The position numbers were made by a program, and so were the translations under genes. The notes under the pieces were generated by a model that saw nothing but the letters and a program-made list of their open reading frames with translations, did not search any database and was not told the origin of the DNA. DNA of 64,000 nt, taken from NCBI GenBank assembly GCA_965223665.1, contig OZ245011.1, positions 2,752,001 through 2,816,000 on the forward strand, read 5' to 3'. Source of the DNA: Nitrospinaceae bacterium (GTDB taxonomy: Bacteria > Nitrospinota > Nitrospinia > Nitrospinales > Nitrospinaceae). The number at the start of each line of letters is the position of its first letter. Position 1 is the stretch's first letter. Shown here piece by piece: positions 4,039 to 62,113 of the stretch.

Positions 4039-7000
4039 ATGACCTTTTTGAAATTAACAAAAAATCGACATTGGACATTAATAATGTCCCTATGTTTTTT
4101 GATTTTTGGAAAAACTGCGTCAGCAGATTTAAATGACTGGGGTCCCTTCCTTCAAACTCTTACTCCAAACAGCGTTATTGTAAAATGGCGTGTTCCCGCT
4201 TCCGAGGATTTCAATAACAGTATTCATTTTGGAACCTCTCCGGGAAGTTTAACCACTATAGAAACCGACACAACAGCAGTGACCAAGTCATGCGGTTATT
4301 GTCCTGAAAGTTGGAGGGAATATGAAGTGACGCTCACCAGCTTGACTGCCGATACCCGTTATTATTATGCAGTTGGAACATCAACCACTCCTTCCACAGA
4401 ATCAAAGCATAATGGAACTTTTTTAACTCCACCAAATGCTGGAACGGCAAAGCCGACTCGAATCTGGGTTGTTGGAGATTCTGGTACCGGAGACACTCGT
4501 GCGCTAGTGGTGGGTGAACGATTTAAGAATTATACAAAAGACCGTGATCCGGATATCTGGTTGATGCTGGGAGACAATGCCTATGATGATGGTAATGACC
4601 GTAATCACCATGATGGTGTGTTTTTAATGTATCCGGAATTCTTAAGGAATGTATCGGTGTGGCCAACGTTTGGAAATCATGATGCACGAAGTGCAACGTC
4701 TGGAAATGAAACCGGGACCTATTTTGACATCTGGCAACTCCCTCGAGCGGCAGAAGCCGGTGGAGTGGCCTCGGGAACTGAGGCGTATTATTCGTTTGAT
4801 TACGGCAATATTCACTTTATTGTCTTGGATTCGTTTGGTCATCCTCGAGTAGCGCCTTCCTCAATGATCACCTGGTTGCAAAGTGATTTAGCGGCCAATG
4901 ATAAGGAATGGATCATTGCGTATTGGCACCATCCTCCTTATACCCGTGGTTCTCATAACTCTAATGCAGAGCAGATTTTAATCGAAATGCGTGAGAACAT
5001 TGTTCCTATTCTGGAAAGCAATGGAGTGGATTTAGTGTTGTCGGGTCACAGTCATTCTTATGAGCGGTCTTATTTTCTGAATGGACATTATGGAGATCAG
5101 ACGACTTTTAATCTGGGCACTCATGCCTTAGACAGTGGGAATGGTAAATCCGAACCGCTGCATATGTCAGATGGAGCATATTCTAAAACATTAAATCCAA
5201 ATGGGACCAAGGCAGGAAATGACGGCGCTGTTTATGCCGTGGCCGGAAGTTCAGGCAAAATTTCTGGAGGATTACTGAATCATCCAGCTATGTACCTTTC
5301 ATTAAACAAATTAGGTTCAATGGTATTGGATGTGTATGAGAATCGTCTGGAAGCGATCTTTATCGATTCCCTGGGTAAAATCGAAGACCAGTTTACGATT
5401 ACTCATGATTTGAATACCTTTCCTCCGGAGTTGTTTTCGGTGTATGCGCCGAATCCGTTGACATTAGAAGTACAGTTTTCGGAGCCTCTGGAAAAAGTGA
5501 GTGCCGAGAATGCAGGAAACTATGTATTAGATAATGGAGCCACCATTACGGCTGCAGAACTGTTGGATGATTATCGAACCGTGAGGTTACTGACTTCAGA
5601 ATTGAGTAACACAACGACGTACAACCTTACAGTGACCAACGTTCAGGATCATGAAAGTAATACAGCGATCCCGGCACCGGGAAGTCAGTTCAGTTTTACT
5701 CCGAGTTTTGTAGATCCACCTGTGTATTCAGCACACTTTCAGGATGGGACGTACCCTCACTCCGGATACAACGGAACCCGGGATACTTATATTTTTGAAG
5801 GGGCACCGGATACGAATTACGGAACCAAAGCAGAACTGATTGCACATGGACCTTTTGAAAATACGATAGAAGGTGACGCTCTGGTGTTGGTGTCCTGGGA
5901 TTTATCATCGATTCCATCGAATGCGACGATTCAATCGGCGACGGTTTATTTTGACCTGTATAATAGAAGTGAGACGTCTTATCATCTGCACCAGATTTTA
6001 ACAACCTGGACGGAAATCGGAGCGACCTGGAATTCATTAGGTGGAACCACAAATGTAAGCGGTACGATCATGGGAACCATCACACCCCAGAAGTTTGCAA
6101 TGAACACGATTCCATTGAATGCAGCTGGGATTAGTGTAGTTCAGGGTTGGGTGGACGGAACCATTACCAATAATGGATTGGCAGTGCAGAATGGTGGTCC
6201 AGGCGAACATACCAAATGGTGGAACGCAATTCGGTTTTTTTCCAGGCAAACGGACACACGTCCGCGGTTGTCTGTGACTTATACCTTGCCAACCGGTGCA
6301 GACAGTATTGCACCGTCAATCATTGCTCCACCGGATGTAGTGGTGGATTCTACCGGGGATCAAACTTCTGTGACTTTAGGGTCTGCGGTTGCGGTGGATG
6401 ATAATGGATCTCCAACAGTCACTAATGATGCGCCAGCAGGTGGGTTTCCTTTGGGAATGACTATAGTAACCTGGACGGCGACAGACGCTGCTGGTAATAC
6501 CGGAACGGACACACAAAAAGTAACTGTCAAAGTTCCGGAAAGCCTTTTGACACACACGATAAGTTTTCAAAACGGTGTAGAACCAAGTGCCTTTTATTTT
6601 GGAACTGAGGATTCTTCCTTAAGGGAATCATCCCCTCATAAAAATGAAGGGAATGACACCGAGCTATGGGGTGACGGAAACGCCCCTGACCCTGAAACCG
6701 GTCAATATGGTGAAGTAACATTTGTAACCAAATGGGATGTATCGGCTATTCCTTCAGACGCGGTTGTTACAGCAGTTGATGTTTCATATAACGTGTTTAA
6801 TGACTCTCCGGTGAATCATAACATATATGCGGTTGAAGCAGATTGGACGGAACCGGAAGTTACCTGGGAAATTATCAGCCATTCTACTACTGTGGGAAAT
6901 ACCATTTTAGGAGCCATTCCCCCCTTTACTTTTAATGAAAACATTGTCACTTTAAATCAAGCCGGGATAGATCTTGTGCAGGGCTGGATAAATGGCACCA

Positions 7001-9996
7001 TCCCCAACTATGGTTTTTATATCCAATCCTCAGGTAGTAATAACGGAATGGGTGTGCATTCCAGTGAGGCAACCACTGCAACTACCAGGCCTAAAATTAC
7101 AATTTCATATGTAATCCCAAATGGTGCAGATGTAATACCTCCAGTAGTAACAGCGCCACCTGATATTACAACTACAGATACCACACCTGATATAGGAACT
7201 GGAACCGCAATTGATAATGTAGATGGACCGTTGACCCCCACGAATGATTCCCCTGGGACGTTTCCGCTGGGAACCACGATAGTGACCTGGAGCGCTACGG
7301 ACGCAGCAGGGAATACTGGAACGGACACCCAATCGGTCACAGTTCAGGAAGCCCCTGGTGGTCCGGTAACGGTGAGTTTTCAGGAAGGAGTGTTACCGGA
7401 TGCGGGCTATGCAGGAACACAGGATAGTTTGTTAAGACAAACGTCTCCGGATCAAAATTTCGGAACCGATGTGCAACTGTTGTCTGATGCGGTTGCTCCG
7501 GATCCGAGTAACGGTTTATTTGGGGAAGTGATGTCGGTGGTGTCCTGGGATTTAACCTCAGTTCCTAATACGGCTGTGGTGTCCTCCGCCAGCATAACGA
7601 TGGATTTCTTTGATGCGAGTTCAGGTCCGTATAATTTCCTGCAGGCGTTGACCCCGTGGAATGAGGGAACCGTAACGTGGAACAGTTTTGGGGGTGGGTC
7701 TGCGAATGTGGGCACCGATATTATAGCCACGATTCCTGGATTTTCCTTCAATGAAACCGAGGTGAATTTAACGGCCGAGGGTCTGAGTTTAGTTCAGGGT
7801 TGGATTGATGGAAGTATTGCCAATAATGGATTGGTTCTGAAAACCGGTGGAAGCAATAATGGAGTTGGAGCGAATTCGAGTGAAGCGACCACGAATCGAC
7901 CTAAGATCACGATCACTTATTCGATACCTACCGGTGGTGATACGGAACCCCCTGTGGTGACAGCCCCGGCAGATATTGTGACGGTGTCTACAGGAGATCT
8001 GACTCCGGTGAGTTTAGGTACCGGTACCGCGAACGATAATGTGGATGGTCCATTAGTGCCGACCAATGATGCCCCGGCAGGCGGATTCCCGGTGGGTACA
8101 ACGGTTGTGACCTGGTCAGCTACAGACTCTTCAGGGAATACGGGTACAGATACGCAAAATGTAACGGTACAAATACCGGTATCTGGAGGAGTGGAAGCGG
8201 TGAGTTTCCAGGAGGGAGTGGAACCGAACCCGGCTTATGTGGGAGTGCAGGACAGTTATTTAAGACAGACCTCTCCGGATCAAAATGTGGGAACGGATGT
8301 GCAACTGTTGTCTGATGCAGTTGCTCCAGATCCGAGTAACGGTTTGTTTGGAGAAGTGATGACTGTAGTGAATTGGGATGTGTCGGGAATCCCAACGAAT
8401 GCGACGGTACAATCGGTGAGCATAACGATGGATTTCTTTGATGCGAGTTCAGGTCCGTATAATTTCCTGCAGGCGTTGACCCCGTGGAATGAGGGAACGG
8501 TAACCTGGAACAGTTTTGGGGGTGGGTCTGCGAATGTGGGCACCGATATTATAGCCACGATTCCTGGATTTTCCTTCGATGAAACCGAGGTCAACTTAAC
8601 GGCGCAGGGAATCAGTCTGGTTCAGGGTTGGATTGATGGCAGTATTCCTAATAACGGATTGGTTCTTAAAACTTCAGGCACTAACAACGGCGTCGGGGCT
8701 AACTCCAGTGAGGCAACCACTAACAGACCTAAACTTAATATTACTTTCTCAACACCAAGTGGTGGAGGAGATACGATTCCTCCAGTAGTAACTGCACCGG
8801 CGGATATTACAACCACAGACACAACACCCAACCTGGGAACCGGAACGGCCGTTGATAATGTGGATGGGACTTTAGTTCCAACGAATAATGCGCCGGCAGT
8901 CTTTCCATTAGGGACAACGATTGTAACCTGGAGCGCTACCGACTCTTCTGGAAATACCGGAACTGATAATCAATCGGTCACCATTACAGATCCGACATCC
9001 ACGGATACCACACCTCCTGTAGTGACCGCTCCGGCCGATATCACAACAGAAGCCACCGGGCCGACCACCAGCGTTTCTTTAGGCACCGGCACTGCCAATG
9101 ATAATGTCGATGGGCCTATAACTCCGACTAATGATGCACCTTCCGGGGGATTCCCTGTGGGGACCACCATAGTCACCTGGAGTGCTACGGATACCGCTGG
9201 TAATACAGGAACGGATACCCAATCCGTCACTATTACAGATACCACTGCACCAACAGTAACTGCACCAGCGGATATTACCACTACAGACACAACACCCAAT
9301 CTGGGAGCCGGAACGGCCAGTGATTTAGTAGATGGATCGATCACGCCAACGAATAATGCTCCGGGAACATTTCCAATTGGAACGACGATTGTTACATGGA
9401 GCGCCACGGATACCGCCGGCAACACTGGTACAGACACACAAAGTGTTACGGTGCAGTCTGGAGGTTCTACCACAGTGAACTTAACAAGTTCTAATGATAC
9501 TTTTATCCGGGAATACCAACCTTTCGATGTTAATGGTTTGATGACAACTCTGGAAGTGGATGCAGATCAATTAAACCCGCCCTCTGGTTTCAATGATGAG
9601 ATCTTCGCAGTGCTTGCCTGGAATGTTTCATCGATCCCGAGCACAGCCAATGTGCAATCAGTGACGATAACTTTTAATGTGACTAATACCAGTTCAGGAA
9701 CCTATGAGCTATTCCAAACATTGACTGCCTGGTCAGAGACCACAGCTAATTGGTATACTTTTTTACCACTTTCCACCTCTCTGGGAAGCAGTGTTCTGGG
9801 AACCTTTAATCCTACAGCAGGATCCAATGTGATCACTCTCAATGCTTCCGGAATTAATTTAGTTCAAGGTTGGATCAATGGTTCAATAACTAATAATGGA
9901 ATTGCCGTTCGTAGTGGAGGCACAACTGATAATACAATTTTTAATTCAAAAGAAGCGGCTTCTAACAAACCTCAAATTTCCATTACCTATAACTAG
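4039..9996 (+). CDS. Large secreted purple-acid-phosphatase-type metallophosphoesterase with an Ig-like domain, 5 DNRLRE-like and 6 HYR-like domains
   Basis: RBS GGAGG and signal peptide ending ASA. FN3-like PAP N-terminus (GPFLQ..TPNSV.VKW). Metal motifs GDSG, GDNAY, GNHD, YWHH, GHSH. Repeated D[ST].[IL]....P..N.G...W....P.[LI]...[YF] modules and TW[ST]ATD..GN modules. Confidence 0.88.
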   Translation: MTFLKLTKNRHWTLIMSLCFLIFGKTASADLNDWGPFLQTLTPNSVIVKWRVPASEDFNNSIHFGTSPGSLTTIETDTTAVTKSCGYCPESWREYEVTLTSLTADTRYYYAVGTSTTPSTESKHNGTFLTPPNAGTAKPTRIWVVGDSGTGDTRALVVGERFKNYTKDRDPDIWLMLGDNAYDDGNDRNHHDGVFLMYPEFLRNVSVWPTFGNHDARSATSGNETGTYFDIWQLPRAAEAGGVASGTEAYYSFDYGNIHFIVLDSFGHPRVAPSSMITWLQSDLAANDKEWIIAYWHHPPYTRGSHNSNAEQILIEMRENIVPILESNGVDLVLSGHSHSYERSYFLNGHYGDQTTFNLGTHALDSGNGKSEPLHMSDGAYSKTLNPNGTKAGNDGAVYAVAGSSGKISGGLLNHPAMYLSLNKLGSMVLDVYENRLEAIFIDSLGKIEDQFTITHDLNTFPPELFSVYAPNPLTLEVQFSEPLEKVSAENAGNYVLDNGATITAAELLDDYRTVRLLTSELSNTTTYNLTVTNVQDHESNTAIPAPGSQFSFTPSFVDPPVYSAHFQDGTYPHSGYNGTRDTYIFEGAPDTNYGTKAELIAHGPFENTIEGDALVLVSWDLSSIPSNATIQSATVYFDLYNRSETSYHLHQILTTWTEIGATWNSLGGTTNVSGTIMGTITPQKFAMNTIPLNAAGISVVQGWVDGTITNNGLAVQNGGPGEHTKWWNAIRFFSRQTDTRPRLSVTYTLPTGADSIAPSIIAPPDVVVDSTGDQTSVTLGSAVAVDDNGSPTVTNDAPAGGFPLGMTIVTWTATDAAGNTGTDTQKVTVKVPESLLTHTISFQNGVEPSAFYFGTEDSSLRESSPHKNEGNDTELWGDGNAPDPETGQYGEVTFVTKWDVSAIPSDAVVTAVDVSYNVFNDSPVNHNIYAVEADWTEPEVTWEIISHSTTVGNTILGAIPPFTFNENIVTLNQAGIDLVQGWINGTIPNYGFYIQSSGSNNGMGVHSSEATTATTRPKITISYVIPNGADVIPPVVTAPPDITTTDTTPDIGTGTAIDNVDGPLTPTNDSPGTFPLGTTIVTWSATDAAGNTGTDTQSVTVQEAPGGPVTVSFQEGVLPDAGYAGTQDSLLRQTSPDQNFGTDVQLLSDAVAPDPSNGLFGEVMSVVSWDLTSVPNTAVVSSASITMDFFDASSGPYNFLQALTPWNEGTVTWNSFGGGSANVGTDIIATIPGFSFNETEVNLTAEGLSLVQGWIDGSIANNGLVLKTGGSNNGVGANSSEATTNRPKITITYSIPTGGDTEPPVVTAPADIVTVSTGDLTPVSLGTGTANDNVDGPLVPTNDAPAGGFPVGTTVVTWSATDSSGNTGTDTQNVTVQIPVSGGVEAVSFQEGVEPNPAYVGVQDSYLRQTSPDQNVGTDVQLLSDAVAPDPSNGLFGEVMTVVNWDVSGIPTNATVQSVSITMDFFDASSGPYNFLQALTPWNEGTVTWNSFGGGSANVGTDIIATIPGFSFDETEVNLTAQGISLVQGWIDGSIPNNGLVLKTSGTNNGVGANSSEATTNRPKLNITFSTPSGGGDTIPPVVTAPADITTTDTTPNLGTGTAVDNVDGTLVPTNNAPAVFPLGTTIVTWSATDSSGNTGTDNQSVTITDPTSTDTTPPVVTAPADITTEATGPTTSVSLGTGTANDNVDGPITPTNDAPSGGFPVGTTIVTWSATDTAGNTGTDTQSVTITDTTAPTVTAPADITTTDTTPNLGAGTASDLVDGSITPTNNAPGTFPIGTTIVTWSATDTAGNTGTDTQSVTVQSGGSTTVNLTSSNDTFIREYQPFDVNGLMTTLEVDADQLNPPSGFNDEIFAVLAWNVSSIPSTANVQSVTITFNVTNTSSGTYELFQTLTAWSETTANWYTFLPLSTSLGSSVLGTFNPTAGSNVITLNASGINLVQGWINGSITNNGIAVRSGGTTDNTIFNSKEAASNKPQISITYN
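7591..7763 (+). repeat. Near-identical intragenic direct repeat, copy 1
   Basis: Matches 8419-8591 (offset 828 nt) with 3 mismatches seen by eye. Confidence 0.9.
8419..8591 (+). repeat. Near-identical intragenic direct repeat, copy 2
   Basis: Matches 7591-7763. Confidence 0.9.
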
Positions 9997-16878: not shown

Positions 16879-19629
16879 TTAAACTTTAAATCGACTCACC
16901 AATCTTTGTAGTTCACTGGCCATGGTTGATAAGTCTCCAGAAGCAACTTTTGTTTCGCCGGCACCTTCAGAGGTACTGCTGGCAGCTTTTGCCACACCCG
17001 CAATGTTTTGGGCGATTTCTCCACTACCTCGAGCTGCTTCAGAAACACTACGACTCATTTCTGCCGTGGTCGCCGTTTGTTCCTCTACCGAACTAGCAAT
17101 GGTGTTAGAGATATCATTGATCTGGTTAATAATGGAAGTGATTTCACCAATAGCATCTACGGACTCCTGAGTGCTTTGTTGAATGTCCTGTATTTTACTA
17201 CTAATGTCATCCGTAGCTTTGGCTGTCTGATTTGCTAATTCTTTTACCTCGTTGGCAACAACTGCAAATCCCTTACCTGCCTCACCAGCACGAGCCGCTT
17301 CGATAGTAGCATTTAAGGCAAGTAAATTAGTTTGCTCTGCAATCGAAGTGATCACCTTAATGACCTGTCCGATTTCTGAACTGCTTTCGCCAAGTTTTTG
17401 GATCGTATTATTAGTACTTTCTGCTAATTTGACCGCGGTAGAAACTACATGAGCAGCATCATTCGCATTTTTGGCAATTTCTTTAATACTGGCACTCATT
17501 TCCTCCGTTCCTGTAGCAACCGTATCTACATTTTTGCTCACTTCTTCTGAAGCAGCAGATACCACCGTTGCTTGAGATGAGGTTTCATCTGCATTAGCAA
17601 CCATTTGTTGACTCACTAATGATAATTGCTCAGAAGAGCCGGTTAAAGAAGTTGCGTTTTGATTAATTTTAGAAATGCTATCCCGAAGATCTGTGAAGAA
17701 AGTAGATAAACCTTCCCCAATTTTTCCGATAGCATCTTCACCTTTCACCGGAACATCTTGCGTCAAATCACCAGTAGCAGCTGCCTGAACGAAATCCAAC
17801 ATGTGGTCCACTTTAGTTTTAAGTTTCTCAGCCTCTTCTCTTTCTTTTTCAGCTCTTTCTTTTTGACGCTTTTCCTCAGCAACTTTCTCAGTAATTACTT
17901 CCCAAGCCATCATGGCACCCAGGTATTCCTGATTCTTGTCAAAAATAGGTGAAACCTCAATGGAAAGAATTTCTGGACCTAATTGAATGGTAGCTTCATG
18001 AGGTAAGTTAGATGGGTCTCCAACAATTTTGGCAATCCGATTCGGATCCTTATGAAACACATCCATAGATTGACCTACAATCTGATTAGATGGAACAGGT
18101 AGAAGCTTTTCTAAAGAACCTAAAGTCTTTTGTGCATAAGGATTCATATATTGTATTTTTCGATCCGTACCTGCAAAAAGAATATTAATTGGTGCATTTT
18201 CAACAATGGAATTGATCCTTGCCGCTTCACGGTCCGCCTCTTCTTTCGCTTTCGCTTGGTCCAACATACCTTCCAAAGAATTCTTGAAATCTCCTTCAAC
18301 ACCAAATTGAGTGACTTGGGTATTACCATTCAAAATATTCTCAGTATGTTTAATGAACTTTTGAAGTCCTTCAAGCAGTTCATTACAAGACCTGCTAAGC
18401 ACACCCATTTCATCCTGGGAATTCACCATTAAAGTATCTTGTCTCAAATCACCTTTGGAAGCACCCCCCAATACAGTAGATATTTTTTGGATAGGCTGAA
18501 TCATTACCTTGGTTAAAAAGAAGGCAATACCAATTAAAAGAACCATAGTAATGATGGTGGAAACGTTCACAGCCCAGCTAATGTTCTCTTGATTTTTGGC
18601 GGCAATGCCAGAGAAAATATCTACTAAATCGTTGGAAACTTTCCTCAATTTATTAGAACTATCCATCAATTCAGCTCGAGCCTCTCGATAGGGGGTGGAA
18701 TTCACTTCAGAGTTTAAAAGTTTATCCACAAACTGAGTGAAATGATTAAACTCTGTTTCAGCCGCAACAACAGAAGATTGAAACTCAGAGTGTTCTACCC
18801 TTTGAATGGATTTCTTTTCCGTCATTTTTAGATTTGCCGGATAAGAGCCACCTGATTTTACCGCACTTAATGTTTCTCCGAATATGGTTTTAGCAGTTTC
18901 ATATTCAGATAAATCGGCATTTAATTCACTTCTTCCAAACGCAATGTTTTCTGAAAATACCAACTGGTATCTTCGTATTCCTAAAATGTCACCCACCTTA
19001 AACTGGGTCCCCATCATTGCGGAATGACAACCAGCACAGGCTTTAACTACGGCTCGATCAGCGGTATATAATCCCATATAAAGCTTTCCTTTATCCTCAT
19101 AAAATTCGCTGAAAACTTTATCGGGATTTGCTTTTAGATATTTGTTTGCTTTTTGATCTAATGGGGTTTTTAGTTTTTGATTCTTATTAATAGGGTTTTC
19201 TGAAATAATTTGGACATTAAAATCTCTGCCTTTTCCAAATTTTTCATTCACCACCCGGGTGAAAGTAGCGGGAAAAGGAACTGCTGGGTGAGTTTCTTTA
19301 GAAGGATCCATACTGATCCCCAGGTCAATCTTTTTAGCTGTTTTGATAACCTGCTGGGTATAAGTTCCTCGCATTTTTGTAATGTAATTATCTAAGGAGG
19401 CAATTTGTTGTTCAATAGTTTTTACGCGGCTTTTTGCCGTTGAATATCCTAAGGCCGACTTTGCCATCGCTTGAGTAAGCATGCGTTGCCGACCCAAAAT
19501 GCTTGTTATTTTATTATCTTCACCAGCTGATTCCAATGAGTCCCGAATCACCCAGCCAGAAGCTAAAACAATAAGGAACATTACCGCAAACATTCCATAG
19601 ACTTTGTACTTGATTGACAAATTTTTCAC
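16879..19629 (-). CDS. Methyl-accepting chemotaxis protein with PilJ/NarX-like and heme-c (DUF3365-like) periplasmic sensor, HAMP and PAS
   Basis: Two TM helices; [16 protein letters not shown] with DVFHKDP; signalling hairpin [33 protein letters not shown] start at 19629 after an AGGGGG RBS-like site. Confidence 0.92.
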
Positions 19630-19784
19630 AAAAACCCCCTTCAAGTTTATAACGATCGAGCTATTTTCTTAATTAAATGACATATTTAAAACAAAATGGC
19701 CATTTAATCCCTATATTTTGAATTCAGAAATCAGAGTTCAAAAATTACTTTAAAAATTACGGAAATTGGGAAGCGATATAAACG

Positions 19785-21717: not shown

Positions 21718-23568
21718 ATGTCAGGAAAAAACCTACTTCAAATAAACCATTCTGAGGAATCAATCCTTCCAAACTTTAAATCCGAATACTGGGGTCCCAT
21801 AGCTATAGTTTTATTGGGATTGTTTATGGCCACGATCAGTTGGCAAAAATGGTCTGATTTAATTATTGATTATGGCCAGCAACTCTATATTCCCTGGCAA
21901 CTTTCTGAGGGGAAAGTTTTATACAAAGATATACATTATTTATACGGGCCCTTATCTTCCTATCTTCATGCTGGACTATTTAAAATTTTTGGAACCGGAA
22001 TAATAACTCTTGTCTGGTTTAATTTAATTTTAATTTGTTTGCTCACTTGGATAATTTACTATTTATTTCTAAAGATCTCAGACCAATTGACTGCGATGGT
22101 TGTTTGCTTAACTTTTGTAGGTATTTTTGCTTTTGGACAGTATGCTCTGGGTGGAAATTATAATTTTGTTTGTTCTTATGAATATGGCTTACCTCATGGA
22201 ATATTTCTCTCCTTCTTAGGCTTTTTAATTCTTGATCATTTCATAAAATTTGGAAAGTCAACTTCCTTAATGGGTTTAGGATTTATTCTAGGATTAATTT
22301 TTTTAACAAAACCAGAAGTTTTTCTGGCCGCTTTTTTTGCATTTATTTTAGGTTTGTTTCTTAATTACCCAGCCATTGATTCCCAAAAAATCAAAAAACC
22401 ATTTTTATTGTTCTTTCTTTTATTTTTAATACCCCCCTTGGTGACCCTTTTATTCCTTGCCCAATCTATGCCAATAATCGATGGCCTTAAATCATTATTC
22501 ATTCCTTGGGATTTAATTTTATTTTCTCCAATAAAATCATTACCTCTATACAAATGGGTATTTGGAACTGATGCATTAGGAGCAAACTTATCCAATGCAG
22601 CCATATTATTTATGACCTTCTCTTTTATATTTTTTTCCGTAATATATCTCAACATTTTGATCCATAAAATTAAAAGAAGTCAGATTTTATTGTCCATTAC
22701 AATATCCTTAACTCTATTTATTATATTATTAAAATATCAAGAACAAATACCCTTGTTAGAATTAGCTGCCCCCTGGCCAATATTTTTGATTTTTTATTTA
22801 GGTTTTTATTCAGCTAAACGGAGTCCATTAAAACAAATTCAAACAATCGATGTAACTTTAACTCTGTTCTCTCTTTTATTATTATTAAAAATATTTTTTA
22901 AAGTTCATTTATACCATTATGGATTTGCCTTGGCATTACCAGCAACTTTAGTTTTAATTAAAATAATTTTATTTAACATCCCAACTTGGGTTTCTCAAAA
23001 ATTTAACAAAGTAGCTTTTTATAGGACAACTACTCTAACGTTAGTTTTCGCCTTTATATATTTACATGTTGAGTTTTCTAATAAAATATATTCCCTAAAA
23101 GGTTTCACAGTGGCCTCTGGCTCAGACAAGATCATCGATTACTATCCTGAATATGACAATAGAGGGGTTATTTTTAATGAAGCTCAAAGGTACGTAAACG
23201 AAAATCTTTCAAATACAAATTATCTCTTATCCCTTCCAGATGCGGTGATTTTTAATTACCTAACAAAAAAGCAATCTCCCATAGGATATATAAATTTAAA
23301 TCCAGCCGTATGGTTAGCTATCGGAGAAAATAAAATCCATAAACAAATCAAATCAAGTATTTCGGATTATATTGTACTTGTAGATCAAGAGTTTCCCTAT
23401 TTTGGAGCAAAACATTTTGGAAAGGACTTTGGCAAACCAACTTTTGATTGGATAAAAAATAATTACAAACTTGAAAAACAATTTGGTGAGGTCCCGTTTA
23501 CTGGCAATGGGTTTGGGATTCAAATTTTAAAACGCAGGGAGGACAACACTCAAACTCATGTTGGCTAA
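21718..23568 (+). CDS. GT-C-type (ArnT/PMT-like) polytopic glycosyltransferase, paralog 1
   Basis: Acidic loop W.D..IDYG..LY..W..SEG..LYKD..Y.YGP after the first TM; TKPE motif; many TM helices and a soluble C-terminal domain. Confidence 0.7.
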   Translation: MSGKNLLQINHSEESILPNFKSEYWGPIAIVLLGLFMATISWQKWSDLIIDYGQQLYIPWQLSEGKVLYKDIHYLYGPLSSYLHAGLFKIFGTGIITLVWFNLILICLLTWIIYYLFLKISDQLTAMVVCLTFVGIFAFGQYALGGNYNFVCSYEYGLPHGIFLSFLGFLILDHFIKFGKSTSLMGLGFILGLIFLTKPEVFLAAFFAFILGLFLNYPAIDSQKIKKPFLLFFLLFLIPPLVTLLFLAQSMPIIDGLKSLFIPWDLILFSPIKSLPLYKWVFGTDALGANLSNAAILFMTFSFIFFSVIYLNILIHKIKRSQILLSITISLTLFIILLKYQEQIPLLELAAPWPIFLIFYLGFYSAKRSPLKQIQTIDVTLTLFSLLLLLKIFFKVHLYHYGFALALPATLVLIKIILFNIPTWVSQKFNKVAFYRTTTLTLVFAFIYLHVEFSNKIYSLKGFTVASGSDKIIDYYPEYDNRGVIFNEAQRYVNENLSNTNYLLSLPDAVIFNYLTKKQSPIGYINLNPAVWLAIGENKIHKQIKSSISDYIVLVDQEFPYFGAKHFGKDFGKPTFDWIKNNYKLEKQFGEVPFTGNGFGIQILKRREDNTQTHVG

Positions 23569-25420
23569 TTTAAATAATTCTTACCAAAATAATTCAAATA
23601 TTTTTAATTCAAAACTCTGGTATTTAATAACTATCTTAAGTTCAGTCTTATTTATGGCCAGTATTAGTTGGTTTAAATGGCCAGATTTACTCATTGATTT
23701 TGGTCCTCAAGTATATATTCCATGGCAAGTATCAGAGGGGAAAATACTTTATAAAGATGTTCTCTATTTGTATGGACCATTTTCTGTTTATCTTCACTCC
23801 TTTTTATTTAAGATCTTTGGACCCGGTGTTTCAGTCGTAATATACTTCAATCTATTGGTGGTTTTACTTTTTTCCTATTTGATATTCATTTTATTTAAAA
23901 ACCTCTCTAACCATTTTTCAGCCACGGTAATTTGCATATTGTTCATCACAGTATTTGCTATGGGTCAATACAATGTGATGGGAAACTTCAATTTTATTTG
24001 TGCCTATGTTTATGAACTTCCCCACGGTTTAATTTTAAGTTTCTTGGCGATTTATATTTTTAATAAATATGTATCCAAACCTAAATTTAATAAAGTTTTC
24101 TTATTAGGGTTTATTTCGGGCTTAGTACTTTTAACAAAGATTGAAGTATCTGTTGCTCTAGTTTGTGCTTTAATTTTAGGATTGCTTTATTATCAGATTC
24201 TTTATTCCACGTCCCAAGTTTGCAGGATTAAAACTTTCTCGCTATTCAGTCTCGGAATTCTTCTTCCACTTTTATTATTTTTAATATATTTATGCTCTCA
24301 TTTATCATTTACGCAAGCATTAAGTGCAATTTTTTCTCCCATAAAATATGCTCTCAATGATCAACTTAGGGCTCTTCCTTTATATCAATGGGTTTCTGGT
24401 ACTAGCGCATTATCAAAAAATCTAATAAATATTACTTTGGGTCTAATTTCTCTGACATTTATTTTTTCATTCATCGCAATGGTTTCTTATAGTCGAATTC
24501 CTTTTCTTAAAAGTCACACCAATTTACCTATAATTTTTATCATTTCTTTATTTTCAATAATTCTATTATTTAATAATCAAATATCATGGAAAGAAATCAT
24601 TAAACCACTTCCGGTGTTTCTTTTAATCTTAACCTTTTACTTTATTAAAAAAATAAATGAATCTCCTAGATCTTCTAATAATATCAGTCATTATTTTACT
24701 CAGTTAATCTTTTCAATTTTTTCATTTATTCTTCTTTTGAAAATTATATTTAATGTTCATTCATTTCATTACGGGTTTGCCTTAGCACTTCCGGGAACCT
24801 TAATTCTAGTAAAATTTTTTCTAAATGATTTTCCAAAATGGTTTTCAAAAAACGTAGTTATTTCACCCTTATATATAAATTCTTGCATGGGGTTGATCCT
24901 GATTTATATTTTTAACCACATTTATATTTCCAAAGAATTTTATGAATTGAAAAACTACCCAGTGCAACTCGAAAATAACAAAATAATGACTTATTTTCCC
25001 AATTTAGATCCTCGCGGAAAGATTGTACAAGAGGCATTAAATTTTATAGATACAAAAATTGAAAAGGATGTTCCAATAGCTCCGATACCCTATGGTCTTA
25101 TGATTAACTTTTTCACTAAACATCCTAATTCCTTAGTATCTTCAACCTATAATCCAGGCGAAGCCTTAATTTTTTCCGAAAAAAAATATTTATCAGACCT
25201 TAAGGAAAAATCTCCGCCATATATTTTACTTTTAGAGGTTGACTCTCAAATTTTAGGTGCCAGATATTTTGGGCAGGATTATGCTAAGACAATTTACAAA
25301 TGGATTCTAGGTAACTACACTCTTATTAAACAGTTTGGAGAAACTCCTTTTACCGGAAAAGGATTTGGTATTCAGATTTTAAAGCGGAAGGAAAACAATC
25401 AAAAAACCAATGTTAGTTAG
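23558..25420 (+). CDS. GT-C-type polytopic glycosyltransferase, paralog 2
   Basis: Same motifs as paralog 1 (WPDLLIDFG..., LYKD..Y.YGP, HYGFALALPG). Confidence 0.7.
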   Translation: MLANLNNSYQNNSNIFNSKLWYLITILSSVLFMASISWFKWPDLLIDFGPQVYIPWQVSEGKILYKDVLYLYGPFSVYLHSFLFKIFGPGVSVVIYFNLLVVLLFSYLIFILFKNLSNHFSATVICILFITVFAMGQYNVMGNFNFICAYVYELPHGLILSFLAIYIFNKYVSKPKFNKVFLLGFISGLVLLTKIEVSVALVCALILGLLYYQILYSTSQVCRIKTFSLFSLGILLPLLLFLIYLCSHLSFTQALSAIFSPIKYALNDQLRALPLYQWVSGTSALSKNLINITLGLISLTFIFSFIAMVSYSRIPFLKSHTNLPIIFIISLFSIILLFNNQISWKEIIKPLPVFLLILTFYFIKKINESPRSSNNISHYFTQLIFSIFSFILLLKIIFNVHSFHYGFALALPGTLILVKFFLNDFPKWFSKNVVISPLYINSCMGLILIYIFNHIYISKEFYELKNYPVQLENNKIMTYFPNLDPRGKIVQEALNFIDTKIEKDVPIAPIPYGLMINFFTKHPNSLVSSTYNPGEALIFSEKKYLSDLKEKSPPYILLLEVDSQILGARYFGQDYAKTIYKWILGNYTLIKQFGETPFTGKGFGIQILKRKENNQKTNVS

Positions 25421-27284
25421 TTTAAATATTTTAAAATCCTCAATTCCTATAACTCAAAATAATAAATTTTGGTGCTGTCTTTTTATTTGGATAATGGGTT
25501 TATTTATGGCATGGATAAGCTGGCTCAAGTGGCCAGATTTAACTATAGATTTTGGGGAACAGCTTTATATCGCCTGGAGACTTTCAGAAGGCGAGGTTTT
25601 ATATAAAGATATAAATTATTTTTATGGTCCCTTATCATCATATCTTCATGCAATTCTTTTCAAGCTATTTGGGGTAAACTTTTTAATAATTGTAAGCTTT
25701 AATATATTCTTAGTTGTGTTAACCGCATGGTTAATTTTTAGAATTTTCGCTTCAATTGGAACCAATATCTCAGCCTTCTTTTCCTCTCTAATTTTTGTGA
25801 CAGTTTTCGCTTTTTCTCAATACCTATGGATGGGTAACCATAATTTCGTTTGTTCCTATGTTTACGATATTACACACGGTATATTATTAACGTTTGCCTC
25901 TATATACCAATTAATAAAGTTAGTTAAAAACCAGAAAACTAAAAATTTATTTTTTTTGGGCTTACTTACCGGTTTGGTTTTTCTGACAAAATTTGAAGTC
26001 GCCCTTGCCTGGGGCATCACGGTAATAACAATATTATCTTATTATTTTTATCATCATGTTCCAGTTCAAAAAAGTAAAATTAGAGAAGTCCTGATTTTCA
26101 TTCTCTCTTCACTACTTCCACTAGCAATATTCTTTTTCTATTTTTCATTTCACTTATCTTTTACAGAAGCATTTTTTACCTTATTAAAACCCTGGGCCTA
26201 TGCATTTAACCCCTTAATTAGAGACCTTCCTTTTTACAAATCTGTAATGGGAATCAATCAGCTTAAAGAAAATATTTTAATTAACGTTAAGTTTGCCAGT
26301 CTGGGGGTTGCATTAATATTAACCCTGTTTTTCATCAACTACAAACTTCTAAAAAATAAGAAAAATAATTACTTACATTATGTATCTTCTATAATTTTTT
26401 TATTAGGATTTCATTTTTTATTTTTTAATACAATTCCCTGGCTTGAAACTTTAAGACCAGTTCCATTATTTATAATTTCTGCATTTCTTATTTTTTTAAT
26501 CAAGTACCACAAAGAAACAAATTTAAATAAAAAAAAATTATTACCATTAATTGCCTTTAGTTTATTTTCTCTTTTATTACTTATAAAAATAATTTTTAAA
26601 ACTCATGTATATCACTATGGGGTTGCTCTAGCACTCCCCGGGACTTTACTTTTAACTAAGTTTATTATTGACGATATTCCAATGTGGATTCAAAAAAGAG
26701 GAGTCCACAATTTATTTTTTAAAACTTCCATATATGGGATATTGGCATTATTTATTTTTGTCCATATAAAAATTTCTTATTCTTATTATGAAAAGAAAAT
26801 TCTTCCAGTAAATCAAAATGAAGATTTATTAATAGGTTATTCCCCTTATGTAACACCTCGAGATATGAATTTTAAAATCGCCTTAAGCTTTATTGAGGAA
26901 ATCATTGAACCTGACCAGGAGTTATATTCTTTTCCCACGGGCACACTTCTAAACTTTCTAGCAAGAAGAAAGAATTCTAATCCCAATATAAGTTTTAATC
27001 CGGGAACTTGGAAATTGGTCGGAGAGAATATTATATTAAATTCTTTAAAAGATTCCCCTCCTCATTTTATAGTCATTGTTTTTCACGATTATCTTGAATT
27101 TAAATATAGATTTTTTGGAGTAGATTTTGGGCAAAATATATATCAATGGATCCAAAAAAATTATCAATCAATTCACCAAATTGGCAACCACCCAGTAAAG
27201 GACAAGAAAGAAGGAATTATTATTTTTAAAAAGAAGCCCTTCAACCCAGGAGAGAACAAACTAACTGAATTTCCCAGAACTTAA
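25410..27284 (+). CDS. GT-C-type polytopic glycosyltransferase, paralog 3
   Basis: Same motifs (WPDLTIDFGEQLY, LYKDINYFYGP, HYGVALALPG). Confidence 0.7.
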   Translation: MLVSLNILKSSIPITQNNKFWCCLFIWIMGLFMAWISWLKWPDLTIDFGEQLYIAWRLSEGEVLYKDINYFYGPLSSYLHAILFKLFGVNFLIIVSFNIFLVVLTAWLIFRIFASIGTNISAFFSSLIFVTVFAFSQYLWMGNHNFVCSYVYDITHGILLTFASIYQLIKLVKNQKTKNLFFLGLLTGLVFLTKFEVALAWGITVITILSYYFYHHVPVQKSKIREVLIFILSSLLPLAIFFFYFSFHLSFTEAFFTLLKPWAYAFNPLIRDLPFYKSVMGINQLKENILINVKFASLGVALILTLFFINYKLLKNKKNNYLHYVSSIIFLLGFHFLFFNTIPWLETLRPVPLFIISAFLIFLIKYHKETNLNKKKLLPLIAFSLFSLLLLIKIIFKTHVYHYGVALALPGTLLLTKFIIDDIPMWIQKRGVHNLFFKTSIYGILALFIFVHIKISYSYYEKKILPVNQNEDLLIGYSPYVTPRDMNFKIALSFIEEIIEPDQELYSFPTGTLLNFLARRKNSNPNISFNPGTWKLVGENIILNSLKDSPPHFIVIVFHDYLEFKYRFFGVDFGQNIYQWIQKNYQSIHQIGNHPVKDKKEGIIIFKKKPFNPGENKLTEFPRT

Positions 27285-59553: not shown

Positions 59554-61863
59554 TTATTCTATTGTTGATTTAATATTGTTAGATTTAAAAAACGAGGCGT
59601 AAGATTTATCCACCACTTTGATATGATTATTAAGCCAGTCCTTAAGGAAATTGAGTAGTTTATCGTCTATTTCTGTGTTTCCTTCTTTATAGCTTTGGAC
59701 AAACTCTTGAACCTGACTTACCAACTTTCTATGTTTATCTTTGTGCTGGTCAGTTTCAGGGTAACCATATTTATCGAATAAACGTTCCTCACAGGAAAAG
59801 TGAGCCACTGTGTAATCGACAATGTCAGTTAACACTATATCTAATACTTGTTTACCTCTATTTTCTAATTTAGCTCGATAGAGCTTATTAATTAAATGAA
59901 ACAAAATCTTATGCTGTCTATCAAATAATTCAATCCCTGTAATATAGCTTTCATCAAAGGTAATGTATTCTGGAAAATCTTGTTCAAGTTTATATTTAGA
60001 AACAAAGTCATTAAGCTGTGTAGCAATTTTATTTAAATGCTTTAAGGAACTTTGAGTCTTATTTGCACCCTGATCAGTACTTTGAGCCGCTTCGGCTACC
60101 CCTGAAATATTTTCAGCTATTTCTCCTGTTCCACGGGCCGCCTCGCTAACGTTACGTCCAATTTCCTGTGTGGTTACAGATTGCTCTTCCACCGCACTGG
60201 CAATTGTATTGGAAAAGTCATTCACTTGATGAATCACATTGGAAATTTCCTCAATGGCCAAAACAGCTTCTTTTGTATCACTTTGAATAGTTTCAATTTT
60301 TAAGGAAATATTTTCTGTAGCTTTAGATGTTTCTTTGGCAAGTTCTTTAACTTCGTTGGCCACAACAGCAAATCCTTTTCCCGCTTCCCCGGCTCGCGCT
60401 GCTTCGATGGTGGCATTTAACGCTAACAAATTGGTTTGTTCCGCAATACTGTTAATGACCTTTATCACCTCGCCAATTTCAGCACTACTTTCGCCCAAGC
60501 GAGAAACGATCTCATTAGTGGTCTTTGCAAATTGAACAGCCTCCGTAACCACTTTCGCCGCATCAGTAGAATTTTTTGATATTTCCTTAATACTCGCACC
60601 CATCTGTTCAGATCCAGCGGCGACTGTTTGAACATTTTTACTAACTTCTTCCGCAGCGGAAGAAACCATATTGGCTTGCGTAGAGGTTTGTTCTGCATTA
60701 TTTGCCATTGTTTGGCTCACGTGCGTCAACTCATCTGCCGAATCAGCTAATAATTGGATGGTTGAAGTTATTTCCAGGATGTCATGTCTTAAATCTTTAA
60801 AAAACTGATTGAGATCGTTACCCATTCTTCCAACCGTATCTTCTCCTTCAACAGCAATTTTTGCTGTCAAGTCTCCATGACTCGCCGCAGTAATAGCTTC
60901 TAAGATATTATTTACTTTAATTTTATGGTCGGCTTCCCTAAGTTTTTCTTTTTCTTCTAAGTCAATTGTAATTTTTTCCTTATTAGCCAACTCAGTTATC
61001 AAATTCCAAGAAACAATTGGACCTAAATATTCTCCATCTCTATCCATCAAGGGATTTATTTCAATTTGAAGAATCTCCTTTCCTAATTGAATTTTAGAAC
61101 TGTGAGGAAGATTACTGGGATCAGACACAATTTTTTTAGCTTGTTGCGGATTTTTATGAAAAATATCAATTGAACTTCCAATAATTTCATCAACATCACA
61201 AGGTAAATTATTGGAAAGGTGTTTAAAATTATTCTTCGCAGAGGTATTTATATATTTTATTTCCAAATTTTTTCTGGCGTCTGCAAACATTATGTTGTTT
61301 GGTAATTCATCGATAAATGCTTTGGTAAATTCGACTTCTTTTTCAAGCTTATTTTTGGATTGAGCAAAATTTAAAATTTTCTTAAGAGCTTTTCCTAACT
61401 CTCCTTGGCACTCATCAATTTGGTTTTCAGAAATAATACCTTTCTCAATATTTTCTGTTACATTTAAGAAGCTATTTATTTGAGATTTTAATTTACTTAC
61501 TATCAGTTTTGCTTTTCCTAACTCATCTGTACGCGAAATTTCTTTATGTTCGGGTATGGTCATTCCATGGGAAAAAACTTCTTTTAATGAGGATGTAAAT
61601 TCCCGAATATTTTTTGAAATGGATTTTGCAAATAAATAACCTATCAAGGAAAGGATTCCAATAGTCATCCAGAGAATTAAAGACAAATCAGCCTCGAGTT
61701 CTGATATCTCATTAATCCACTGCATATTTTGCAAATTGAGGTTTTTAATTTTTTTCAAGTAAGAATTGAATGTGGAGGAAACAATCAAAGTTTGAGTAAA
61801 CCCCATTGCAAGTAAAAATAAAACCCACTTATTTGGTATGCTAAGATTTTTCCACCAATTCAT
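59554..61863 (-). CDS. Methyl-accepting chemotaxis protein with PAS and C-terminal bacteriohemerythrin
   Basis: Two closely spaced TMs; PAS with [11 protein letters not shown] hairpin; C-terminal D.QH..LF, HF..EE, H...H and WL..HI...D. ATG at 61863 with a GAGG RBS. Confidence 0.93.
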
Positions 61864-62113
61864 AGTTTGTCGCCTCTGGAAATTTAAAGAGATAAAAACT
61901 TGTATTATATTCAATGCAATATAAACAAGTTAAATGAGTTAGGTAATTTTTGTCAAAAGATTTTATTTTAAAAAGTGCCTAAAAAGACACCATAAAAAAA
62001 TAGATTTTTATTGGTATTTTTTTTGATTTTTTATTCCAAAAATATTTCCTTTTTTTCCTAAAACCACTATTATTATTAATTCTCAATTTTGTGATTTTTG
62101 CGTTTACAACCTT

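Follow-up and report, generated by a model that had tools for sequence, protein, structure and literature searches.

The 64,000 nucleotides analysed here (the window) come from contig OZ245011.1 of a Nitrospinaceae bacterium, a marine organism of the nitrite-oxidiser type (GenBank assembly GCA_965223665.1, positions 2,752,001 to 2,816,000 of the forward strand) and carry, on the minus strand, a gene for a methyl-accepting chemotaxis protein (MCP). Its product combines a periplasmic helical bundle, a module with a heme c attachment motif placed within that bundle, and a cytoplasmic PAS domain of the Aer2 type (Table 1). The open reading frame (ORF) runs uninterrupted from 16879 to 19644, and its likely start is a GTG at 19629, giving a product of 916 amino acids (aa). 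The database copy of the protein (P0002, 904 aa) begins 12 codons downstream of this GTG (window 19594–19629), which would clip the first transmembrane segment (TM1); we favour the longer form because a Shine-Dalgarno-like AAGGGGG lies upstream of the GTG and because the N-termini of homologues (MKNLSIK.KVY...) agree with it.

Table 1. Features of the chemoreceptor gene, in residues of the 916-aa product and in positions of the window.
Feature	Residues	Window positions	Strand	Evidence
Whole gene, methyl-accepting chemotaxis protein, stop codon included		16879..19629	minus	ORF, AAGGGGG, translation, Pfam MCPsignal
TM1	~9-31	19537..19605	minus	Hydrophobic 19-residue windows starting at residues 9-14
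Bundle helix 1	26-72	19414..19554	minus	AlphaFold2 model; alignment to insertion-less homologues
N-box-like 12-mer	42-53	19471..19506	minus	Comparison with published McpN pattern
Inserted Tll0287-like / sCache_heme module	73-230	18940..19413	minus	PF11845, Foldseek, VIA-align
CAGCH heme c attachment motif	C198, C201, H202	19024..19038	minus	Invariant in relatives
Bundle helices 2-4 and beta-hairpin with GG.YP	231-351	18577..18939	minus	AlphaFold2, alignment, match to McpN ligand-binding domain
TM2	~352-376	18502..18576	minus	Hydrophobic windows starting at residues 352-362
HAMP 1	371-423	18361..18519	minus	Pfam HAMP, E 2.2e-7
Aer2-type PAS (proposed heme b ligand H526, distal W576)	469-587	17869..18225	minus	phmmer against PDB, Foldseek
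HAMP 2	~615-649	17683..17787	minus	Pfam HAMP on piece 590-700, model
MCP signalling (kinase-control) domain	722-881	16987..17466	minus	PF00015, E 1.7e-34

This domain architecture is, in our judgement, practically certain. The PF00015 (MCPsignal) match and the best chemoreceptor match in the PDB (E 1.5e-28) identify the protein as an MCP, and the Tll0287-like module is flanked by two hydrophobic segments, which places it outside the cytoplasm; both segments come from a crude hydrophobicity scan rather than a dedicated topology predictor. The original prediction, made by a model from the DNA letters alone, had read three potential inputs from this protein, namely a nitrate/nitrite-type motif on the first periplasmic helix, a periplasmic heme c and a cytoplasmic heme-PAS. 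All of the motifs that it named lie where it placed them: the helix-1 motif at residues 44–53 (19471–19500), CAGCH exactly at 19024–19038 (residues 198–202), and the remainder at residues 118 (PFPATF), 144 (ENPIN), 213 (GDILG), 522–529 (MDVFHKDP, window 18043–18066) and 574 (MAWEV).

Four approaches, namely Pfam, alignment to homologues that lack the insertion, AlphaFold2 (AF2) and fold searches, agree that a Tll0287-type (DUF3365) module is inserted into the helical periplasmic domain, as had been proposed, and together they place residues 73–230 as a nested unit in the membrane-distal turn between helices 1 and 2 of a PilJ-type bundle. PF11845 (Tll0287-like) matches residues 69–218 with 34.6 bits against a cut-off of 24.1. 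The 264 homologues collected comprise 213 composite proteins, which span the complete module and have a CxxCH, 13 insertion-less proteins and 38 fragments or partial matches. The insertion-less homologues show the insertion directly, because they align contiguously across the junction: residues 25–72 of the window protein correspond to ~24–71 of the targets and residues 231–363 to ~72–204, with no CxxCH.

The AF2 model of residues 25–365, built from 116 aligned sequences, reached a pLDDT (predicted local distance difference test) of 96.9 and a pTM (predicted template modelling score) of 0.88, and it returned the topology that had been anticipated, a PilJ/McpN-type bundle with a nested Cache module. 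Helix 1 is modelled as one continuous helix of 75 residues (26–100, or 2–76 in domain numbering, to which 24 is added to obtain protein numbering) that passes unbroken into the N-terminal helix of the Cache module; the beta/alpha Cache module follows, with CAGCH in a short helix, and the chain then runs back through three helices, the first and second of which are separated by a small beta-hairpin (elements after the insert, in domain numbering: H217-235, E237-251, H257-282 and H288-340). The hairpin, between bundle helices 2 and 3 (residues 250–267, window ~18829–18882), has a motif of its own, F...TL..A...GG.YP.(D/N)L, in which F250, G260 and G261 are shared by 211–213 of 214 composite members and by every one of the 13 insertion-less relatives.

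Structure comparison recovers both halves of the composite. Foldseek gave Tll0287 (5b82, E 5e-4) as the best PDB match, then GSU0935 (3b42) and ordinary Cache sensors, and VIA-align, which covered 48,161 representative PDB chains, aligned 142 residues of Tll0287 5b82 to model residues 44–205 (Z 13.0, root-mean-square deviation (rmsd) 3.5). At rank 1 VIA-align placed the ligand-binding domain of McpN (6gcv; Z 15.1, rmsd 2.0, 126/126 residues, 18% identity), in an alignment that spans model residues 11–321 and skips the insert; PilJ itself (8wdf) scored Z 12.5. Fold does not single out McpN, because other four-helix bundles score Z 13–15; it supports a bundle only, so that the family assignment rests on sequence links. 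These links run through relatives of the window protein. The cut-off of the PilJ family in Pfam (PF13675) is reached by 7 of the 13 insertion-less homologues, three of six composite relatives scanned score 31–35 bits, always over profile positions 1–64 of 114, and a precomputed PilJ match stands beside the Tll0287-like one in 17 of the 120 matches listed from a word-index search with residues 25–365 (200 proteins at E ≤0.001). An NCBIfam model of NarX matches residues 270–431 (E 3.1e-7) with 29 bits, below its cut-off of 578; a profile of the insertion-less homologues found in the PDB NarQ, via TM2 and HAMP only, and, weakly, PilJ (7zjr, E 0.0016); and phmmer with residues 60–235 found nothing relevant in the PDB, its sole match being SEC18 at E 0.3.

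Several observations weigh against the receptor model set out below. Its own PilJ score is 18 bits (E 0.0032, residues 25–100) against a cut-off of 26.6, and a whole-protein Pfam scan gave no PilJ match; of the three families that the original prediction had named for a hidden Markov model search, only the Tll0287-like one was found above its cut-off, PilJ falling short and the Pfam PAS families scoring weakly. The VIA-align matches at ranks 2–6 reach Z 13.3–14.9, a high background for four-helix bundles. In addition, the chain leaves the Cache module through bundle helix 2 and not through TM2, a feature that bears on how a heme signal would reach the membrane.

The composite module is widespread in the phylum. 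An exhaustive search of representatives at 50% identity yielded 675 matches at E ≤0.001, of which 161 were at E ≤1e-10 and 79 at E ≤1e-30, and the module occurs in 45 of 120 phylum genomes (27 of 57 high-quality ones), in 16 of 30 genera, at up to four copies per genome; the source genome has a single copy. The 120 matches listed are almost all from Nitrospinota where their source is named, with one from Magnetococcales; some Proteobacteria also have the module, the named members belonging to Magnetococcales and Shewanella. Outputs among these 120 include plain MCPs, six MCPs with a C-terminal hemerythrin domain (P0003, P0004, P0013, P0018, P0031 and P0086) and nine histidine kinases. Another of them, an MCP of 1173 aa (P0016), has two PAS domains and a C-terminal bacterial-like globin on the same periplasmic domain.

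At the heme c attachment site C198, C201 and H202 are invariant in 214 of 214 aligned relatives. C198 and C201 are also the only periplasmic cysteines of the window protein, which leaves no axial Cys, and the two motif cysteines are the only ones in the Cache region in 207 of the 214. The DUF3365/Tll0287 family has been reclassified as 'sCache_heme', with a family-defining CxxCH kept in at least 99% of members (Deshpande et al., preprint, PMC12889525), and cytochrome c assembly genes are present in the source genome. Judging from the conserved motif, heme c is very probably attached covalently in the periplasmic domain.

As described in the text of that preprint, a stand-alone, Cys/His-ligated member acts as a redox protein, and a signalling-type member without axial Cys releases nitric oxide (NO) slowly (dissociation rate constant 6e-4 per s), forms no stable O2 complex and autoxidises fast (PMC12889525). 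The window protein fits the signalling class ('Cluster 2' of PMC12889525) in its fusion to HAMP and MCP domains and in likewise lacking the axial Cys, and by these sequence features its module belongs to the signalling type. With the closest known systems of this family (Tll0287 5b82, Geobacter GSU0582/GSU0935 and the Cache_heme-HAMP receptor of P. azotoformans described in PMC12889525) it has in common the Pfam family, CxxCH, a Cache-like fold and an extracytoplasmic position; it differs from them in being an insert in a bundle instead of the whole periplasmic domain between the transmembrane segments.

What this heme would sense is less clear-cut. By analogy, the published signalling-type relatives favour NO over O2, in line with the original prediction, and we consider it an even call whether the heme c senses NO rather than redox state. 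In this phylum the oxidation of nitrite takes place in the periplasm and feeds cytochromes c, and the heme could instead be an energy-taxis sensor of the cytochrome c pool downstream of nitrite oxidation. Redox-type properties of stand-alone family members (PMC12889525) would suit such a sensor, as would the presence of a Geobacter heme c chemoreceptor domain, GSU0935 (3b42), among the structural matches, and the stand-alone double Tll0287-like proteins of the source genome also lack an axial Cys, so that a missing Cys is by itself no proof of NO sensing. We nonetheless regard a redox sensor as unlikely, given that the sole characterised signalling-type member, also without axial Cys, binds NO tightly and autoxidises fast (PMC12889525).

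The stand-alone proteins just mentioned (L001 and L002, at ~907 kb and ~3596 kb of C1) are secreted-looking proteins of 368 aa, each with two tandem Tll0287-like domains, two CxxCH motifs and no Cys beyond these. The genome also has a third protein, of 241 aa, with a single CxxCH. An axial Cys as in Tll0287 was sought in the stand-alone Tll0287-like proteins of the source genome, and none was found there.

Closer to the membrane, helix 1 carries the sequence GRQRMLTQ. The N-box of McpN has been defined as [IVL]-[ND]-x-A-G-x-Q-R-M-L-[ST]-Q, and in the McpN structure R61 hydrogen-bonds a single nitrate on the dimer axis, with G58, A59 and M62 in contact (PMC6381276). G58, A59, R61 and M62 correspond, in this order, to G46, R47, R49 and M50 of the window protein, whose motif resembles the N-box, as had been suggested, and keeps its G, Q, R, M, L, T and Q, the nitrate-binding Arg among them. 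The match is imperfect in the way already noted in the original prediction (TSILG for IN.AG): 7 of 10 specified positions fit, and T42, S43 and L45 stand for [IVL], [ND] and A, all three outside the listed contact residues. G46, R47, Q48, R49, M50, L51 and Q53 are kept in 198–211 of 214 relatives (R49 in 198), and the core G.QRML[ST]Q occurs in 172; with such conservation neither this motif nor CAGCH is a chance occurrence. No part of the domain is better conserved than GRQRML.Q when insertion-less members are counted in, and a search of the whole genome in six frames for the N-box/P-box core, G.[QL]RM[LQ][ST][QY], found this gene as its sole match.

A homodimer of the periplasmic domain, heme included, is predicted with a score of 0.81 against 0.00 for the best control. 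Of proteins solved as pairs 20 of 30 attain this mark, and of those solved as single chains 1 of 23; at least 86% of the contacts recur between runs, and the partner pLDDT is at least 86. The predicted interface follows helix 1 with symmetric self-contacts and includes G46, R47, R49 and M50 (domain residues 22–23 and 25–26). The prediction would thereby put the motif on the axis of the dimer, where the N-box of McpN sits. M86, conserved in 171 of 214 relatives and co-varying with Y188 and R219, was considered as a distal heme ligand and dropped, because this residue (62 in domain numbering) contacts its own twin on that axis.

The co-variation divides the composite proteins into two subfamilies. 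One, with M86/Y188/R219 and Leu at N-box position 4 (169–170 of 214), includes the window protein; the other, with D86/A188/L219 and the canonical Ala (30–31 of 214), includes proteins of Shewanella canadensis, of one gammaproteobacterial metagenome-assembled genome (MAG) and of one deltaproteobacterial MAG, and most of its inspected members have both an exact N-box and CxxCH. In a tree from the bundle columns alone (115 rows, 183 columns) the 13 proteins without the insert do not group together but are dispersed among the composite ones; the best tree requires 12 changes, and well-supported branches force at least three. This hints at repeated loss or gain of the insert and at a bundle that can work without it, although support for the tree is weak, with 18 of its 112 branches well supported.

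These data leave nitrate or nitrite binding at the N-box as a real possibility, which we put slightly short of even, and as the weakest of the three proposed inputs, because the strict pattern is missed at three positions and the PilJ score lies below its cut-off. To be set against such binding are those three departures and also the additional Arg, R47, in place of McpN A59; the Leu that replaces Ala at N-box position 4 in 159 of 214 relatives; and the dimer prediction, which may owe its outcome to solved receptor dimers that the tool had memorised and came from a job that differed from the tool's calibration. The GRQRML helix could, instead, be a conserved element for dimerisation and signal transmission that descends from a PilJ ancestor and has ceased to bind an anion, in which case the inputs would be heme c and the PAS heme only. 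The sub-threshold PilJ score and the deviations from the N-box, matched in full by 29 of 214 composite members, are what one would expect of such a helix, and its position on the dimer axis could equally be conserved for purely structural reasons. Yet the residues kept are the McpN contacts, the Arg included, the motif is more conserved than the rest of the bundle, distant composite members have an exact N-box, and the insertion-less relatives retain the motif without any other evident periplasmic sensor site. We therefore consider a receptor that works by its hemes only to be rather unlikely, and keep anion binding by the N-box as a tentative part of the model.

Relative to McpN of P. aeruginosa, a PilJ-domain receptor and the top structural match, the window protein has in common a membrane-proximal four-helix bundle, to which it adds a heme module of 158 residues and the GG.YP hairpin. 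Relative to the P-box sensors NarX and NarQ, its output is an MCP with a PAS domain and not a histidine kinase.

On the cytoplasmic side, sequence and Foldseek comparisons agree with the original prediction that the PAS domain after HAMP 1 is of the Aer2 type, with both the heme His and the distal Trp in place. With this region phmmer matched P. aeruginosa Aer2 (PaAer2; 3vol, E 4e-12, and 4hi4, E 3e-10) and V. cholerae Aer2 (VcAer2; 6ceq, E 5e-7) in the PDB, at 28–30% identity to the Aer2 PAS structures, and the same three entries take ranks 1–3 in Foldseek for a model of residues 430–700 (pLDDT 79.9), 4hi4 superposing with rmsd 2.0 over 117 columns (template modelling score (TM-score) 0.80) and 6ceq with rmsd 1.6 over 105 (TM-score 0.82). 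H526 in MDVFHKDP aligns with IDVFHKNP of PaAer2, and W576 with the PaAer2 Trp. In Aer2 PAS domains the E-eta His coordinates heme b and the I-beta Trp stabilises O2, and the PAS domains of PaAer2, VcAer2 and VvAer2 signal on O2 binding (PMC10107281). Among 23 homologues of the same architecture, both residues are kept in 16 and both are lost together in 7 (P0010, P0043, P0064, P0071, P0080, P0084 and P0089). Taken together, these comparisons suggest that the PAS domain probably binds heme b and, with somewhat less assurance, that it senses O2.

The Aer2 receptor core consists of PAS, di-HAMP and kinase-control module, and Aer2 receptors are mostly soluble, LiAer2 being membrane-embedded (PMC10107281). 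The window receptor has the FHK-type E-eta His and the I-beta Trp in common with PaAer2, VcAer2, VvAer2 and LiAer2, as well as a HAMP followed by the kinase-control module downstream of the PAS, and it differs in being a transmembrane protein with a large periplasmic sensor. After the PAS domain comes HAMP 2: Pfam matches it with E 0.0089 on the piece 590–700, below the cut-off when scanned alone, and the model has a helix at 580–618, a connector and a helix at 633–699. At the model's pLDDT of ~80, a degenerate second HAMP may still be present beside it.

Features of this region that speak against an Aer2-like O2 response are an Ile aligned to the H-beta Leu of FSLDV, a Leu that we take to be L264, counting back from the Trp; VIT in place of DxT, with the Thr alone kept; and a single HAMP-like unit between the PAS and the kinase-control module, as against the di-HAMP of the Aer2 core. 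They would suit a PAS heme that responds to NO, CO or redox instead of O2 or merely modulates the periplasmic signals, as would the position of the PAS, which follows a transmembrane sensor and is flanked by two HAMPs, and the role of upstream PAS domains as modulators in multi-PAS Aer2 receptors (PMC10107281). Because the E-eta His and I-beta Trp are both present and are lost together in relatives, and because the three characterised Aer2 proteins named above all signal on O2 binding (PMC10107281), we judge such a role improbable and retain O2 as the likelier ligand.

Aer2-type PAS domains are numerous in the source genome, which has nine of them in six of its eight MCPs (loci L004–L017), with FHK and Trp kept in all nine; the set includes one soluble tri-PAS receptor and represents an unusually heavy investment in heme-PAS domains. 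A second MCP in the window itself (59554–61914, minus strand, 786 aa) has an Aer2-type PAS at ~60973–61320 and a C-terminal hemerythrin domain, and could be another O2- or iron-linked receptor.

From these elements we propose a homodimeric, membrane-spanning chemoreceptor with up to three sensory sites that would feed the single CheA and the flagellar pathway of the genome (4.35 Mb, 98.6% complete, with one CheA, eight MCPs and flagellin genes). At the membrane-distal tip the sCache_heme module would bind heme c covalently via C198 and C201, with H202 as ligand, and, as it lacks the axial Cys of the stand-alone redox-type proteins, would most likely leave an exchangeable sixth site; this site would bind NO or, alternatively, the heme would report the periplasmic redox state. 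On the dimer axis the two Arg49 residues would form a pair that could bind nitrate or nitrite in the manner of McpN and NarX/NarQ. Beyond TM2 and HAMP 1, the Aer2-type PAS would bind heme b via H526, with W576 stabilising O2, and the three signals would converge through the second HAMP on the kinase-control module.

As a whole, we moderately favour this explanation in terms of a multi-input chemoreceptor. The reading with three inputs is plausible; the joint action of all three is unlikely. Two further points tell against the model: the ligand identities rest on homology, the AF2 models being cofactor-free, and the genes adjoining the chemoreceptor gene include no che, nitrate or nitrite genes. 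A still more specific arrangement, which we find quite unlikely, would make the periplasmic domain a two-site N-oxide coincidence sensor, in which the distal c-heme, on binding NO or changing its redox state, would act via helix 1 to gate the binding of nitrate/nitrite by the N-box, or the reverse, and the PAS would add O2.

The component parts of this receptor are all known, and we found neither the nesting of a heme-Cache module in a PilJ bundle nor its combination with an Aer2 PAS in the literature searched. Searches found no paper joining DUF3365 with PilJ, and nothing relevant on a Cache domain inserted in a four-helix-bundle chemoreceptor or on Nitrospina MCPs with heme. The main text of both versions of the sCache_heme preprint does not mention PilJ, a helix bundle, 4HB or nitrate, and the text of the version 1 supplement, which lists Nitrospinota proteins with PF11845, does not mention PilJ, PF13675 or 4HB (PMC12889525).

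How chemolithotrophs find their substrates on oxic–anoxic gradients is little studied, and among the eight receptors of this genome only the one described here has an N-box-like site or a composite heme c module. Its nested module would offer a compact, testable model of two extracytoplasmic sites in series on one transmembrane signal, and it adds a new architecture to the newly described heme-Cache family. Given the spread of the composite (the 45 phylum genomes and 161 clusters at E ≤1e-10 given above), one biochemical study would annotate many proteins, in a family that extends to magnetotactic and other gradient-dwelling Proteobacteria. If the coincidence sensor were real, it would be the first chemoreceptor of a nitrite-oxidiser lineage to detect the substrate or the product of nitrite oxidation, and the nested module would be the first described cofactor-bearing Cache module inside a four-helix-bundle sensor.

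The genomic context of the chemoreceptor gene gives no functional hint: its neighbours encode a PNP/MTAP-like phosphorylase, a hexapeptide protein, a DUF389 protein, an FGE-sulfatase-like protein and an HDOD protein. Elsewhere in the window, three tandem ORFs of 616–624 aa lie at 21718–27284 (plus strand) in DNA of low G+C content (GC 0.29–0.31); the translation of the first looks like a polytopic membrane protein, and a Pfam match (PMT_2) occurs in the third only. At 4039–9996 (plus strand) a protein of 1985 aa with metallophosphatase, HYR and CBM96 domains is encoded at a GC of 0.43–0.48, against 0.30–0.40 in the surroundings, and this stretch may be acquired DNA.

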